Below, in pieces: positions 3,495 through 49,534 of a stretch of DNA of 64,000 nt. Position 1 is the stretch's first letter. Every line of letters begins with the position of its first letter. A model generated the notes under the pieces. That model was not told the origin of the DNA. It made no database searches and saw only the letters and a list, made by a program, of their open reading frames with translations. Made by a program: the position numbers and the translations under genes. The DNA lies in contig CAVYXU010000004.1 of NCBI GenBank assembly GCA_963772565.1, forward strand, positions 3,886-67,885. The letters are read 5' to 3'. The DNA is from an uncultured Chloroflexia bacterium (GTDB lineage: Bacteria; Chloroflexota; Limnocylindria; Limnocylindrales; CSP1-4).

Positions 3495-3931
3495 ACGACG
3501 CCGCCCAGATCCTGCTCCGCGACGCCCGGGAAGGGGACGCCGAGCGCCTCGCGACCCTGCTCACCGACGAGGGGTACCCGGCCGGTGAGACCGACCTCGC
3601 CGGCCGGATCGAGCGTTTCTCCGTACCCGGGTCACGCGTCGTCGTCGCCGAGGCCGGTGGTGAGGTGGCCGGGTTCATCGCGTTCCACGTCATCCCGCGC
3701 TTCGAGACGGACGATCGCTTCGTCCGGATCGTCACCCTGGTCGTGGGCCCGGGCTTCCGGGAGCGAGGGGTCGGCCGCCTGCTGATGACCGAGGCGGAGC
3801 GCGTTGCCGGCGAGGCGGGCGCGGTCTACCTCGAGATCACGGCCGGGCATCATCGCCCCGAGGCGCGCCAGATGTACGAGTCGCTGGGCTACGACGCCGG
3901 CGTCACGACCTACCTGCGGAAACGGACCTGA
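3491..3931 (+). CDS. GNAT family N-acetyltransferase
   Basis: Start MNDAAQ overlaps the upstream stop (ATGA). Has an RERGVGRLLM...MYESLGY motif. Confidence 0.8.
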   Translation: MNDAAQILLRDAREGDAERLATLLTDEGYPAGETDLAGRIERFSVPGSRVVVAEAGGEVAGFIAFHVIPRFETDDRFVRIVTLVVGPGFRERGVGRLLMTEAERVAGEAGAVYLEITAGHHRPEARQMYESLGYDAGVTTYLRKRT

Positions 3932-44946: not shown

Positions 44947-45015
44947 ACGAGGCCACCGACCGCTCGGTCCGGCATGCTGCCGGAGCGTCTCGCAGCGTCG
45001 TCCCAGGAGCGTCCA

Positions 45016-45768
45016 ATGCAGCACCATCGATTGCGCACACGCTGGCCCCGGCTGGCTGCGATCCTCGCCCTGGTCGCGCTCATCGCCGCCGGCGCGGGCG
45101 TCTGGTACCTGTTCTTCCGGCCGGCCGGGCCTGCGCCGGTCTCGCTGGCGAGCCTGCCACCGATCGGATCGCCGGCTGCGGGATCGCCCGCCGGGTCGGG
45201 TGGTCCGGCTGTCGGGATCACCGGGACCTGGCGGGTGGATCCCTCGATCGGCTCCGTGGCCGACGGGTCTGGTTCGTTCGTGGGCTACCGGGTGCGCGAG
45301 GTGCTGGCGACGATCGGCGCCGCCGAGGCGGTTGGCCGGACGCCCGACGTGACCGGGACGGTCACCATCGAGGGCACGACGATCACGGCGGCGGAGCTCA
45401 CGGCGGACCTGACGACGCTTCGGAGCGACGAGTCGAAGCGCGACCGCCAGCTCTCGCGCCAGGCCATCGAGACCTCGCGGTTCCCGACCGCCACGTTCAC
45501 CCTGACCGCCCCGATCGAGCTCGGTTCCATCCCCGCAGAGGCGCAGATCGTCGACGCCACCGCGACCGGGGGCCTGACGCTCCACGGAGTGACCAGGTCG
45601 GTCGACATCGCGCTGCAGGCGCGCCTCCAGAACGGCGTGATCACGGTCGCGGGCTCGCTCCCGATCGTGTTCGCCGATTTCGGGATCGAGCGGCCGCAGG
45701 CGGGGGCCGTGCTGTCGGTCGAGGACCAGGGCACGATGGAGCTCCAGCTCCAGCTCACCCGGGGCTGA
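45016..45768 (+). CDS. YceI family protein with N-terminal TM anchor
   Basis: Start MQHHRL preceded by AGGAG. YceI-like beta-barrel region (TFTLTAP...LTLHGVT). Confidence 0.8.
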   Translation: MQHHRLRTRWPRLAAILALVALIAAGAGVWYLFFRPAGPAPVSLASLPPIGSPAAGSPAGSGGPAVGITGTWRVDPSIGSVADGSGSFVGYRVREVLATIGAAEAVGRTPDVTGTVTIEGTTITAAELTADLTTLRSDESKRDRQLSRQAIETSRFPTATFTLTAPIELGSIPAEAQIVDATATGGLTLHGVTRSVDIALQARLQNGVITVAGSLPIVFADFGIERPQAGAVLSVEDQGTMELQLQLTRG

Positions 45769-45771
45769 CGG

Positions 45772-45790
45772 CTCTCAGCGACTTCTCAGG
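45772..45790 (+). promoter_or_regulatory. MprA-box-like 19-bp direct repeat, copy A (ctctcagc-gac-ttctcagg), followed 9 nt later by TTGACT
   Basis: 8+3+8 architecture shared with copies B and C. Confidence 0.6.
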
Positions 45791-46240
45791 CTCCAGCGCT
45801 TGACTATGGGCAACCGCGGCGCTCTGGGTGGTCTCCTCCCCACCGAGAGGGCCGCGGACGTATGACCGGGACGGCGGGCCGACTCCGGCAGGTTGCCCGG
45901 CATCGCTCTCGGTCACCCACCTCGCTCGCGCCTGCCACGGTTTCGCCCAGCTCGCTCGCGCTGACTCACGCGGCGAGTCAGATTCGCCCTTCGCCTTGGG
46001 CGCCGACGCCCGATGGGCTCCAAATCGCCGTGGGCCGCCAGCCGGGATGCGCCGATGATGCGCCCGGTGAGTCGCGGCGAGTCACGGCACCCGACGAGGC
46101 CCGGACAGGCGGGCGGCCGCACAGTCGGGCCAGATCAGCCGGTTCGTCGAGCCGAACCGCGTGGTGTGGACGCCGATGGCCATGGCGCTGCGGGCGCGCA
46201 CGAGCGGCGGCTGATCGTGGGCTCGGGCGGGGTCCGGCAG

Positions 46241-46259
46241 CTCTCACGTCGCTCTCAGG
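46241..46259 (+). promoter_or_regulatory. MprA-box-like 19-bp direct repeat, copy B (ctctcacg-tcg-ctctcagg), followed 9 nt later by TTGACT
   Basis: 57 nt upstream of the protease start. Confidence 0.65.
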
Positions 46260-46315
46260 TGGCGGGCGTTGACTGGGGACCAAGACAACGACCTCCTCGT
46301 CAGGAGCCCCGACCG

Positions 46316-47323
46316 ATGATCCCTCCGTTCACTCCCGCCGACCCCGAGCCGGATCCGTTCGGCCCTTCCGTCCCGCCGCCGCCGATCGCCGCCGGCATCG
46401 CCCCCGACGCGGACCCGCGGGCCCCGGCTGGCCCGGCGTTCCCGCCGACCCCGGTGCCACCGGCAGACCCGATGCCCACGCCGCATCCGGCGCAGCACGG
46501 ACCCGGCCGCCGTGGAGCCGGCCGCCGGCTCGGCCCCATCCTCGCCGCGTCGTTGCTCAGCGCGACGCTGGCTTCGGGCGGCACGGCCCTCGTCGTGCAG
46601 CAGCTTGTCCCGCCGGTCACGGCCTCGCCCGCGGCAACCATCGCGACCGGTACCGCGACCAGCACGACGACGCTCCAGACCGCTGACCTCACCGCGATCG
46701 TCGCCGCCGCACAGCAGTCGGTCGTGACGATCACGGCGGACGGCCTGTCGGTCAGCCGGTTCTCGCCATTCGGCCAGCCCACCTCCGGCGTCGGCTCGGG
46801 GATCATCCTCACCGGCAACGGCTACATCCTGACCAACCGCCACGTGGTGCAGAACAGCACGAGCCTGAGCGTCGAGCTCTCGGATGGGCGAACCTTCCCG
46901 GCCACGATCGTCAAGCAGTTGACCAACAACGACCTCGCCCTGATCAAGATCGACGCGACCGGCCTGACCGCGGCCCACGTCGGCGACTCGGGCGCGATCC
47001 AGGTGGGCGAGACGGCACTCGCCATCGGCAGCCCCCTGGGAACCTATACCGAGACGGTGACGCGCGGGATCGTGTCCGGTCTGGGCCGCCAGATCACCGT
47101 CGCCGACGAGACCACGCGACAACCCACGACGCTCACCGGCCTGATCCAGACCGACGCCGCCATCAACCCCGGCAACAGCGGCGGACCGCTGCTGGACGGA
47201 ACCGGTGCGGTGATCGGGATCAACACGGCGATCGACGCCAGCGCCCAGGGCCTGGGCTTCGCGATCCCGATCAACGCCGCCTCCGACCTCATCTCCATCG
47301 CCACCGCCGGCCAGGGCGCCTGA
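46316..47323 (+). CDS. S1C (HtrA/PepD-like) trypsin-type serine protease without PDZ domain
   Basis: TNRHV, NDLALIK and NPGNSGGPL catalytic triad motifs. Pro-rich N-terminus and TM segment. AGGAG SD upstream. Confidence 0.9.
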   Translation: MIPPFTPADPEPDPFGPSVPPPPIAAGIAPDADPRAPAGPAFPPTPVPPADPMPTPHPAQHGPGRRGAGRRLGPILAASLLSATLASGGTALVVQQLVPPVTASPAATIATGTATSTTTLQTADLTAIVAAAQQSVVTITADGLSVSRFSPFGQPTSGVGSGIILTGNGYILTNRHVVQNSTSLSVELSDGRTFPATIVKQLTNNDLALIKIDATGLTAAHVGDSGAIQVGETALAIGSPLGTYTETVTRGIVSGLGRQITVADETTRQPTTLTGLIQTDAAINPGNSGGPLLDGTGAVIGINTAIDASAQGLGFAIPINAASDLISIATAGQGA

Positions 47324-47425
47324 CGGCGGGATCCGGGGGCGACGCTCCTCGTGACGACGCCCCTCGGATGGAACCGCCACTCCCGCCACGTTCGGGAGCG
47401 GAGGCCGCCATTTCCGGCAGAATGC

Positions 47426-47444
47426 CTCTCAGCGCGCTCTCAGG
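47426..47444 (+). promoter_or_regulatory. MprA-box-like 19-bp direct repeat, copy C (ctctcagc-gcg-ctctcagg)
   Basis: 26 nt upstream of the response-regulator ATG. A GACGCT hexamer follows 9 nt later. Confidence 0.65.
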
Positions 47445-47469
47445 AACGCGATCGACGCTGGGGAACGCC

Positions 47470-48147
47470 ATGCACCTGCTTCTGGTCGAGGATGACGAAC
47501 GCCTCGCCCGCGCTCTGACCCGTTTGCTCGAGGAGGACCGGCACGTCGTCGAGCACGCTCCTGACGGGCGAACGGGGCTCGAGCTGGCAACCGCCATCGA
47601 CGGACTCGACGTGGTGATCCTCGATATCGGCCTGCCGGACATGTCCGGCCTCGACGTCGCGCGACGGTTGCGCCGCGACCGGGTGGACGTCAACATCCTG
47701 ATGCTCACTGCTCGCGACACGGTCAACGATCGGGTCACGGGCCTCGATGCGGGCGCCGACGACTACGTGGTCAAGCCGTTTGCGTACCAGGAGGTCGCGG
47801 CCCGGCTTCGGGCGCTCGCCCGGCGCGCCGAGCCCGGCCCCCGGCGCGCGGCCCCGAGGCTCGAGTGCGGTGCGATCGCGCTCGACGAGACCGCCCGCCG
47901 CGTGACGGTCGAGGGTCGCACGGTGGACCTCAGCCCGCGCGAGTTCTCGCTCCTGGAGGCCCTGCTTCGCCATCCGGGCCAGACGCTGACTCGCGACCAG
48001 CTTCTCGATCACGCTTGGCCGTTCAGCGTGGCCGTGACACCCAACGCGGTCGACGCGTACGTGCACTACCTCCGGACCAAGCTGGGCGATGCCGGGTCGC
48101 AGATCGAGACCGTCCGCGGTGTCGGCTATCGCCTGTCGGATGCCTGA
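47470..48147 (+). CDS. OmpR/PhoB-family response regulator (MprA-like)
   Basis: Receiver domain (LLVEDD, ILDIGLPDMSG, LTARD, KPF) and a winged-helix C-terminus (VRGVGYRL). Confidence 0.95.
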   Translation: MHLLLVEDDERLARALTRLLEEDRHVVEHAPDGRTGLELATAIDGLDVVILDIGLPDMSGLDVARRLRRDRVDVNILMLTARDTVNDRVTGLDAGADDYVVKPFAYQEVAARLRALARRAEPGPRRAAPRLECGAIALDETARRVTVEGRTVDLSPREFSLLEALLRHPGQTLTRDQLLDHAWPFSVAVTPNAVDAYVHYLRTKLGDAGSQIETVRGVGYRLSDA

Positions 48148-49534
48148 CGGCACCCGCGTCGATCCGCTCGACGACGGCGCCGAGCAGGTTGCGCTGGCAG
48201 GTGAGGCGCGGCTCATCCGGCGCGTCCGCTGGCGCCTCGTGGCGTGGAGTGGGGCGTCGACGCTCGTCGTCCTCGTCCTGCTCGGCGCCGTCCTCTACGC
48301 GGCCGTGGCCAACACCCTGGCAGGCGCGTCGGTCCAGCAGCTGTCCGACCGCGCCCGCCCGCTCGTCGACGCCCTCGAGGGTCCATCCGCCGGCGAGCAG
48401 GACCGGCCGACGCTCGGGTTCGTGTTCGGTGGCGGGAACACGCTGCTGTTTGCGTTCGACGACCAGGGCGCGCCGGTCCAGGTGGGGCGCGGCCCCGTGG
48501 TCGTGCCCGCGGGCCTGCCCGAGGACGGCGGCATGGCCGCCGCGCGGATCGCGACCGACGGCCGCGACGTGCGCACCGCGACCCTGGACCTCAGCACGGC
48601 CGTCGGGCAGTCGACGTCGGTGCCGATCCGGGTCCTGACCTGGAAGGTCGTCGCGCAGCAGGACGGCAACACCTACTTCCTCCAGGTGCTCCAGGACCGC
48701 ACGACCGAGGTCCAGACGCTCAACGCGCTGCTCGCGGTCCTGCTCGTCGGCGGCGTCCTGGTGGTCGTTGTCGCGTTTGGCTTCGGGACGGTGTACGCGC
48801 GGCGGGCGCTGGTCCCGATCCGCGACTCGCTGGTCGCCCAGCGCGATGCGCTGCGTCGCCAGCGCGAGTTCGCGGCCGACGCGAGCCACGAGCTGCGCAC
48901 TCCGCTGACGGTCATCCGGTCGTCGGTGGAGCACCTGTCGCGTCATCGCGACCGACCGATCGGCGAGTCGAGCGAGGCGCTGGATGACATCGATGCCGAG
49001 GTGAGCCATCTGGCGTCACTGGTCGAGGACCTGCTGCTCCTCGCCCGATCCGACTCGGGCGCCGTCTCGCTGGCGTCGGCGCCACTGGACCTCGGGGACA
49101 TCGCGTTCGATGCGGCGTCGACGCTCGGCCGCGCGGCCGACGCGCGCGGCGTCAGGGTGACGGTGGACCCGGAGCCGGCGATGGTCGACGGTGACCCGGA
49201 GCGCCTCCGCCAGCTGGTGATGATCCTGGTCGACAACGCGGTTCGTCACAGCCCGCGCGGAGGCGAGGTCGGCGTGACTGTCCGCGCCGCCGGCCCGATC
49301 GTGTCGGTCGAGGTCGCCGACCAGGGGCCGGGCGTCCGCCCCGAGGACATGCCCCACGTGTTCGATCGGTTCTGGCGCGCACCCGGTGCGCCATCCGGTG
49401 GGACCGGTCTCGGGCTCGCGATCGGGAAGTGGGTCGTGGATCGTCACGGCGGGCGGATCGGGGTCGCCAACGCCGAAGCTGGCGGGGCCGTGTTCCGTGT
49501 CGAGCTGCCGGCGTCGGGGGTCGTCGCGCCGTAG
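48140..49534 (+). CDS. sensor histidine kinase (MprB-like)
   Basis: H-box FAADASHELRTPLT and an HATPase region (GTGLGLAI). 8-nt overlap with the regulator gene. Confidence 0.95.
   Translation: MPDGTRVDPLDDGAEQVALAGEARLIRRVRWRLVAWSGASTLVVLVLLGAVLYAAVANTLAGASVQQLSDRARPLVDALEGPSAGEQDRPTLGFVFGGGNTLLFAFDDQGAPVQVGRGPVVVPAGLPEDGGMAAARIATDGRDVRTATLDLSTAVGQSTSVPIRVLTWKVVAQQDGNTYFLQVLQDRTTEVQTLNALLAVLLVGGVLVVVVAFGFGTVYARRALVPIRDSLVAQRDALRRQREFAADASHELRTPLTVIRSSVEHLSRHRDRPIGESSEALDDIDAEVSHLASLVEDLLLLARSDSGAVSLASAPLDLGDIAFDAASTLGRAADARGVRVTVDPEPAMVDGDPERLRQLVMILVDNAVRHSPRGGEVGVTVRAAGPIVSVEVADQGPGVRPEDMPHVFDRFWRAPGAPSGGTGLGLAIGKWVVDRHGGRIGVANAEAGGAVFRVELPASGVVAP

Follow-up and report, generated by a model that had tools for sequence, protein, structure and literature searches.

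Tandem TCTCAG-type boxes beside a protease gene, a regulator-kinase operon and a conserved hairpin in an uncultured member of the Limnocylindria: probable operators of the adjacent OmpR/PhoB-family regulator

The locus and its genes

The window investigated here is a stretch of 64 kb (positions 3,886 to 67,885 of contig CAVYXU010000004.1) from the assembly GCA_963772565.1 of an uncultured Chloroflexia soil bacterium of the Limnocylindria, which comprises 2.56 Mb in 87 contigs and has a G+C content of 71%. It contains a locus in which a YceI-like gene is followed by a 547-bp gap, the gene for an HtrA-type serine protease, and the genes for a response regulator and a histidine kinase. Three copies of a 19-bp tandem repeat accompany these genes: box A near the beginning of the gap, box B near its end, and box C between the protease and regulator genes. 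It is probable, and we hold this with good confidence, that these boxes would serve as operators of the adjacent OmpR/PhoB-family regulator, which would activate from a position that replaces the -35 element, in the layout of PhoB-type promoters.

The protease gene lies at 46316–47323 on the + strand (Pfam Trypsin_2, E 7e-32). Its product has a proline-rich N-terminal tail, a single transmembrane segment (residues 75–94) and a catalytic domain (residues 154–332), in which the His-Asp-Ser triad domain is intact with the motifs TNRHVV, NNDLALI and GNSGGP. Its best match in the PDB is HhoA/HtrA, with PepD (1y8t) at E 7.5e-29. No PDZ domain was found by Pfam, the NCBIfam HtrA profiles match only over positions 6–253 of 357, and the protein ends 3 residues past the protease-domain match. 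The description of this protein as HtrA/PepD-like in the first-pass annotation, which was made from the sequence alone, thus holds for the catalytic domain and does not extend to a PDZ domain.

The response regulator gene (47470–48147, + strand) encodes the receiver and winged-helix DNA-binding domains of the OmpR/PhoB family (Pfam Response_reg PF00072, E 1.3e-26; Trans_reg_C PF00486, E 2.1e-25), with NAVDAYVHYLRTK as the recognition helix. Close homologs, at 85–94% identity, come from metagenome-assembled genomes (MAGs) labelled 'Chloroflexi bacterium RBG_16_72_14', 'Chloroflexota' and 'Candidatus Limnocylindrales', and the host is accordingly one of the Chloroflexota of Limnocylindria type and no member of the actinobacteria. 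The sensor histidine kinase gene (48140–49534, + strand; Pfam HisKA and HATPase_c) encodes two transmembrane segments around an extracytoplasmic domain of ~135 residues. The longest open reading frame (ORF) for the kinase begins at 48089, within the regulator gene; its start is probably the ATG at 48140, which overlaps the regulator stop codon (ATGCCTGA), and the overlap at 48140–48147 suggests translational coupling. The order of protease, regulator and kinase reported by the first-pass annotation is the order seen in the gene calls and Pfam assignments. All three proteins fall below the equivalog cut-offs of NCBIfam, among whose models there is none for MprA.

Sequence, position and rarity of the boxes

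Box A (CTCTCAGCGACTTCTCAGG, 45772–45790), box B (CTCTCACGTCGCTCTCAGG, 46241–46259) and box C (CTCTCAGCGCGCTCTCAGG, 47426–47444) are all on the + strand and, read directly from the window, share the pattern CTCTCASS-N3-YTCTCAGG. Each is a tandem of two half-sites, TCTCAGC and TCTCAGG in box A, with a period of 11 bp. This TCTCA-N6-TCTCA arrangement is present in all three copies and in the 57 sites of other genomes from which a non-self box matrix was built. In relatives, box A is kept right after the stop codon of the YceI-like gene and box B is kept 5' of the ortholog of the protease gene, for whose promoter it is the predicted operator. Box C, the putative autoregulatory operator of the regulator-kinase operon, has the top matrix score in the genome, 27.7. 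The first-pass annotation had placed 19-mers at 45772, 46241 and 47426, each with a hexamer exactly 9 nt after it (TTGACT, TTGACT and GACGCT), and had noted that copies B and C are just 5' of the protease and regulator genes. All of this is borne out by our reading, in which the distance to the start codon of the following gene is 57 nt from box B and 26 nt from box C.

The boxes are rare. With up to two mismatches allowed, the pattern matches boxes A to C and nothing else in the 64-kb window; in shuffled windows 0.24 matches are expected, and none of 100 shuffles reached three. The exact pattern occurs in the 2.56-Mb assembly at boxes A, B and C only, and the core TCTCA-N6-TCTCA has four occurrences, these three and one at C78:22775. 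Boxes A to C score 25.6–27.7 bits with the matrix, the runner-up site in the genome scores 21.0, and apart from the boxes there is no score above 6 in the window. The box is neither scattered over the genome nor inside genes, and the outcome that the first-pass annotation had named as refuting it, a random or intragenic distribution of the motif, did not occur. The matrix hits at C21:14814, C56:99331 and C46:3969 were inspected and are too weak to claim as boxes.

Conservation of the boxes and the predicted regulon

The genus was surveyed in 26 genomes using the pattern YTCTCA-N6-TCTCAS, with the same pattern read backwards as a control. There were 77 matches in 25 of the genomes and none for the reversed control. 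G003 alone lacks a box, and it alone has no detected ortholog of the regulator. In alignments of 20 orthologous loci and then of 8 extended loci, every box is on the coding strand of the gene that it closely precedes, and none is more than a few kb from the two-component genes. Next to the latter, as many as six boxed promoters form an array in some relatives. The boxed genes at these loci, as assigned by Pfam, encode YceI, a PMT_2/YkcB (ArnT-like) glycosyltransferase, a Ferric_reduct/FAD/NAD flavocytochrome, ApbE, the protease, and an HlyD-ABC-MacB/FtsX efflux system, with the regulator and kinase last. Boxes away from the locus in relatives precede a NEW3-domain surface protein with an ABC transporter, and an HlyD-type adaptor.

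A fourth box, TTCTCACGCTGGTCTCACG, is present in the genome of the window at C78:22774–22792. It is intergenic, 75 nt 5' of an HlyD-ABC-FtsX (MacAB-like) operon, and it is kept in genome G009. The homologous efflux operon of relatives lies between the protease and regulator genes, behind a box of its own. Judged by domain content, every predicted target of the box would have an extracytoplasmic or envelope function.

Are the repeats regulatory at all? They could have arisen by chance, or be the remnants of a local duplication, a dispersed repeat or the end of a mobile element. TTGACT is common to boxes A and B, which makes a local duplication conceivable, and the sequence between these two boxes is variable and has short words that are repeated elsewhere in the genome. 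Set against this are the expectation in shuffled windows and the absence of the reversed pattern from all 26 genomes. The flanks are not conserved, yet the box core and a T 15 nt downstream of the box are invariant, and the boxed sites precede different, non-homologous genes. We regard a non-regulatory origin as hardly credible.

Across the class, 151 genomes were surveyed for the box and for a close ortholog of the regulator (E < 1e-100). The box was found in 20 of the 22 genomes with a close ortholog, and in 39 of the 129 others (Fisher p = 7.9e-8). In genus g4 and family f4, where the regulators are 66–76% identical to that of the window, a box is directly 5' of the regulator start codon, so the autoregulatory placement is old.

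When 185,579 species genomes were scanned for the box followed by TTGAMT, 21 loci were recovered, 17 of them in Chloroflexota and the other four in Edaphobacter, a Thermoleophilia MAG, a Solirubrobacterales MAG and Streptomyces. This type of box is in use beyond the Chloroflexota and the Actinomycetes proper. At the Thermoleophilia locus (L082:4799–4843) three consecutive 11-bp CTCTCAGG repeats are followed by TTGAAT and, 9 nt later, an ATG; an ABC ATPase gene is ~1.7 kb downstream. At the locus of the acidobacterium Edaphobacter, also a MAG (L081:6579–6612), the same box with TTGAAT lies in the divergent region of a regulator-kinase pair beside FtsX-type permeases.

Promoter architecture

The hexamers that follow the boxes are TTGACT at 45800–45805 (hexamer A), TTGACT at 46269–46274 (hexamer B) and GACGCT at 47454–47459 (hexamer C), all on the + strand. 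We infer that each is the -10 element of a promoter in which the box, at about -40 to -22, would stand in for the -35 element. Hexamer A has no -10 partner downstream. Hexamer B is followed by GGGGA, CAA, the Shine-Dalgarno sequence AGGAG and the protease ATG at 46316; the CAA, ~7 nt 3' of the hexamer, is conserved and is the probable transcription start. From hexamer C it is 10 nt to the regulator ATG at 47470, implying a very short leader.

The 57 non-self sites were chosen by their two TCTCA cores only, without regard to the hexamer. All 57 have a T 15 nt past the box, at position 6 of the hexamer, and the hexamer consensus is T-(T/A)-N-A-(C/A)-T. In place of the hexamer, sites away from the locus have TATGAT or TATCAT, and other genera have TACCCT, TAGGCT or CAAACT. 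Counted from the hexamer, the first start codon of a long ORF is 6–7 nt away at 14 sites and ~37–45 nt away at ~25 sites, a bimodal distribution in which the more distant start codons have an AGGAG Shine-Dalgarno sequence. The short distance is exemplified by the flavocytochrome gene in six genomes and by both Jiangella genes described below, and several target mRNAs accordingly appear to be leaderless. A separate group of six cases with 10 nt between hexamer and ATG corresponds to the regulator gene of the genus. Both main modes fit a transcription start ~7 nt after the hexamer and this argues for the hexamer as -10, with the box replacing the -35.

Might the TTGACT hexamers be -35 elements instead? 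The regulator would then be a class I activator bound upstream of the promoter, or an occluding repressor, and box C would lie inside a protease-regulator-kinase transcript. TTGACT is identical to the σ70 -35 consensus in five of six positions and is without the A at position 2 of a -10, and at box C there is no room for a leader containing the GGGGA. Nevertheless, no σ70 -35/-10 pair was found in 45600–47600, and nothing resembling a -10 hexamer occurs 16–19 nt 3' of hexamer A, B or C. At box A that stretch is the arm of a conserved hairpin, and a transcription start ~30 nt 3' of hexamer B would be inside the AGGAG Shine-Dalgarno sequence. At homologous sites the place of the hexamer is taken by GACGAT, GACCAT, TAGGCT, CAGACT or TATGAT, and the start codon of a long ORF follows 6–7 nt on, which fits a -10 only. 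On the missing downstream -10 and these start codons the -35 assignment was rejected, and the explanation as a whole is decidedly improbable.

The leader of the protease gene (46281–46318) has a CCUCCU 4 nt 5' of the AGGAG Shine-Dalgarno sequence. The two could form a mini-hairpin that sequesters the Shine-Dalgarno sequence, its predicted stability being low. Similar CCUCC...GGAG pairs are seen in the protease leaders of several relatives.

The proposed circuit and its binding protein

The mechanism that we propose begins with the phosphorylated regulator, a dimer of which would occupy the two TCTCAG(S) half-sites, 11 bp apart, in head-to-tail orientation. With the box in place of the -35 and the -10 hexamer 9 nt on, activation would be of class II, as by PhoB. 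Promoter A would yield a short hairpin RNA or leader and promoter B the mRNA for the membrane-anchored HtrA-type protease. Promoter C would yield the regulator-kinase operon by way of a near-leaderless mRNA, giving positive autoregulation, and the fourth box would drive the HlyD-ABC-FtsX efflux operon. The kinase probably senses envelope or secretion stress, because the same boxes head further genes for extracytoplasmic proteins in relatives. The occurrence of the boxes, their rarity and conservation, the constant distance to the hexamer and the link with the regulator gene are observations, to which this scheme adds the identity of the binder, the activation and the signal.

Several observations weigh against this scheme. 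The genome encodes 18 regulators of the OmpR family (Trans_reg_C), so that the choice of binder is deduced from adjacency, autoregulatory placement and co-occurrence. Between 29% and 32% of the genomes of the class that have no close ortholog of the regulator still carry at least one box. TTGACT has T, and not the usual A, at position 2 of a -10 and is a perfect -35-like word. The ATG 10 nt past hexamer C does not make for a cleanly leaderless mRNA and the distance is too short for GGGGA to be a transcribed Shine-Dalgarno sequence. Finally, the stress signal is deduced purely from gene content. The first-pass annotation had proposed an autoregulated envelope-stress module. Conservation and co-occurrence support its autoregulatory part, in which the boxes would be operators through which the adjacent regulator controls the protease gene and its own operon, and the words 'envelope stress' come from gene content only.

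With so many regulators of one family in the genome, the boxes might be bound by a paralog, for example the PhoP-like regulator encoded on C48, and their adjacency to the two-component genes would be incidental or a matter of cross-regulation. The C48 paralog has a PhoP-like helix, NVVETYVSYLRRK, and a hybrid box, CTCACAGCGACCTCTCAGC, the second half-site of which is of the TCTCAG type. Upstream of its gene (C48:2259, - strand) the sequence reads CTCACAGC-GAC-CTCTCAGC, 9 nt, TGAACT, 6 nt, ATG; this is the same geometry as at boxes A to C and the promoter appears to be leaderless. The first half-site, however, is the TCACAGC half-site of Mycobacterium tuberculosis PhoP (PMC4832192), which fits the different helix of the paralog. 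Furthermore, several genera and another family have the box immediately in front of the start codon of the adjacent regulator itself. In at least 20 genomes the boxes cluster no more than a few kb from the two-component genes, and their presence tracks the ortholog of the adjacent regulator (p = 8e-8). Binding by a paralog is therefore unlikely, and the regulator encoded beside the boxes is our candidate for the binding protein.

The hairpin behind promoter A

No gene is directly 3' of box A. Instead, a GC-rich hairpin of 44 nt (45814–45857, + strand) starts ~9 nt after hexamer A, with the loop UCUCCUCC at 45832–45839. Its minimum free energy is -37.3 kcal/mol (z -3.2). The arms and the loop word CTCCTCC are kept in 15 species, in which the loop word is invariant and the flanking sequence is not; 92% of the aligned cells are paired, and at four pairs both sides have changed. 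A covariance model finds the hairpin at one locus per genome and in this genus only. No Rfam family matches 45600–47600, and the hairpin has no U-tract. A reading as a peptide, based on a 19-codon ORF right after hexamer A, was rejected, since the loop differs in length between species by 1–4 nt and not by multiples of three.

Some relatives have the hairpin as the 5' leader of a gene for an ArnT-like (PMT_2) glycosyltransferase. In others it is only ~60 nt from box B, whereas in the present genome the two are separated by ~380 nt of variable non-coding sequence (45860–46240), a spacer that ranges from 60 to 750 nt among close relatives. A remnant of the glycosyltransferase gene was looked for in the spacer and tblastn gave no match, the homolog being on C30. 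The spacer contains direct and inverted repeats, such as ttcgcccagctcgctcgcgc and ctgactc...gagtcag. Words of 21–28 nt from it recur at C4:70071, C4:71138 and C12:169, and a small dispersed repeat is possible.

The hairpin may be a small RNA dependent on the regulator, or a cis-acting leader. Its CUCCUCC loop is complementary to the AGGAG ribosome-binding sites of the regulon. A tentative possibility, to which we give rather low odds, is that promoter A serves a regulator-dependent RNA of ~50 nt whose loop mimics the anti-Shine-Dalgarno sequence of 16S rRNA and pairs with the AGGAG of envelope mRNAs, as the non-coding arm of a stress response, or else a cis-acting leader that controls whether the glycosyltransferase or protease is translated. 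Non-coding arms of this sort belong to the envelope stress responses of Escherichia coli, where they include MicA, RybB and CpxQ.

The YceI-like gene

The gene 5' of box A (44974–45768, + strand) encodes a YceI-like secreted or lipid-binding protein (Pfam YceI, E 8.8e-21), and its stop codon is 3 nt before the box. Its true start may be the ATG at 45013. Several relatives (L046, L064–L066, L070 and L071) have a box and hexamer of their own 5' of this gene. The matrix scan found none 5' of it in the present genome. There is a degenerate box-like word, CTCGCAGCGTCGTCCCAGG, just 5' of the ATG at 45013 (44989–45015), which may be a decayed box, given the intact box with TTGACT at the YceI gene of several relatives.

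Comparison with MprA-type loci of Actinomycetes

The first-pass annotation had likened the repeats to the MprA box of M. tuberculosis. We tested this analogy on 251 genomes of Actinomycetes, again with the reversed pattern as control, and found the box pattern in 139 of them as against ~50 for the control. In genomes G294, G271 and G338 two boxes occur 2.25 kb apart, and exact matches of the regulator protein identify at least G294 and G271 as Jiangella. The order of genes there is regulator, kinase and a protease with a PDZ domain, and JGI and NCBI give relatives of the regulator the name 'response regulator MprA'. At the Jiangella regulator gene the box CTCTCAGGCGATTCTCACC is followed by 9 nt, CAGACT, 6 nt and the ATG, and at the protease gene the box CTCTCAGCCTGCTCTCAGA is followed by 9 nt, CACCGT, 6 nt and the ATG. 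The protease is of the HtrA type, with 473 residues, a proline-rich tail, a transmembrane helix and the PDZ domain. In Jiangella mangrovi (L119, G294:C1:5928701–5931000) the ATGs of the regulator and of the PepD-like protease are both 6 nt after the hexamer, and both mRNAs are therefore predicted to be leaderless.

The envelope-stress module MprAB-PepD of M. tuberculosis is arranged mprA-mprB-pepD (White et al. 2011, PMC3062566). Like it, the locus described here has an OmpR-family regulator and a kinase adjoining a membrane-anchored HtrA-type protease with a proline-rich N-terminal tail, and like the MprA-annotated loci of Jiangella it has a tandem 8+3+8 box with 9-nt spacing before both the regulator and the protease genes. 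It differs in its host, which belongs to the Chloroflexota, in the order protease-regulator-kinase in place of regulator-kinase-protease, in the protease without PDZ, and in its extra local regulon members and hairpin RNA; moreover, close relatives of the regulator are not named MprA in our sources. MprA sites vary among actinobacteria, since a study of MprA in Corynebacterium glutamicum reports TKTTAAGAAM, a loose motif of 10 bp that differs from the box.

How close are the regulators themselves? That of the window shares 50% identity with the regulator from the MprA-annotated loci of Jiangella. Its best match in Jiangella is, marginally, that protein, and in the reverse search three paralogs score higher; it is thus at most a possible ortholog of MprA. 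The likeness drawn by the first-pass annotation stands for the box, its spacing and its placement at MprA-annotated loci of Jiangella, and does not extend to the gene order, as that annotation itself had noted, or to the PDZ domain. As far as can be judged by sequence comparison, the analogy with MprA holds in function.

Comparison with other known systems

In the PDB the best match of the regulator is PhoP of M. tuberculosis (E 5e-43). This protein binds TCACAGC-N4-TCACAGC as a tandem dimer with a strict 4-bp spacing (PMC4832192; PDB 5ED4). The boxes have the same 7+4+7 layout and the half-site TCTCAG(C/G) is identical in six of seven positions, differing at position 3, which is A in the PhoP site and T here. 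The recognition helix reads NAVDAYVHYLR here, NVVESYVSYLR in PhoP and NVVETYVSYLR in the C48 paralog. Three base-contacting residues are different from those of PhoP (V213A, E215D and S216A), as is the regulon, and a separate PhoP-like paralog with a TCACAGC-type site is present in this same genome.

The pho box of E. coli consists of two 7-bp direct repeats with a period of 11 bp, which replace the -35 element and end ~10 bp 5' of the -10, and it is bound by the phosphorylated activator PhoB. The promoters proposed here resemble those of PhoB in the period of the repeat, the replacement of the -35, the 9-nt gap between box and -10, and the lack of a -35 consensus. They differ in the sequence of the half-site, the signal and the regulon, and in that several target mRNAs appear to be leaderless.

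Envelope or secretion stress systems include CpxRA-DegP and BaeSR-MdtABCD/Spy of E. coli and CssRS-HtrA/HtrB of Bacillus subtilis. The likeness to these is that of an autoregulated two-component system of the OmpR family that would induce an HtrA protease, with efflux as in Bae. Unlike in a member of these families, there is no equivalog-level similarity (all proteins being below the NCBIfam cut-offs), and the operator differs.

Conclusions

To our knowledge, no transcriptional regulon has been described for the Limnocylindria, which are abundant uncultured Chloroflexota of soil and freshwater. The circuit predicted here is of a known kind in a new lineage, and what is mildly new about it is the operator and promoter geometry that crosses phyla and the hairpin RNA that is specific to the genus. 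The Limnocylindria gain a sequence-defined operator, a promoter model (the box stands in for the -35, the -10 has one T that never varies, and leaderless mRNAs are frequent) and a predicted regulon comprising the PDZ-less HtrA protease, MacAB-like efflux, YceI, an ArnT/PMT-like glycosyltransferase, a flavocytochrome with ApbE, and the hairpin RNA. The last of these is the most novel part of the system and, if it is indeed made from promoter A, would be the first regulatory RNA proposed for the Limnocylindria. Chloroflexota and MprA-annotated loci of Actinomycetes have in common the TCTCAG-type box and the distance from it to the -10, so that the regulator-operator pair would be conserved across phyla, and this conservation helps to carry regulon predictions between the Chloroflexota and the Actinomycetes.

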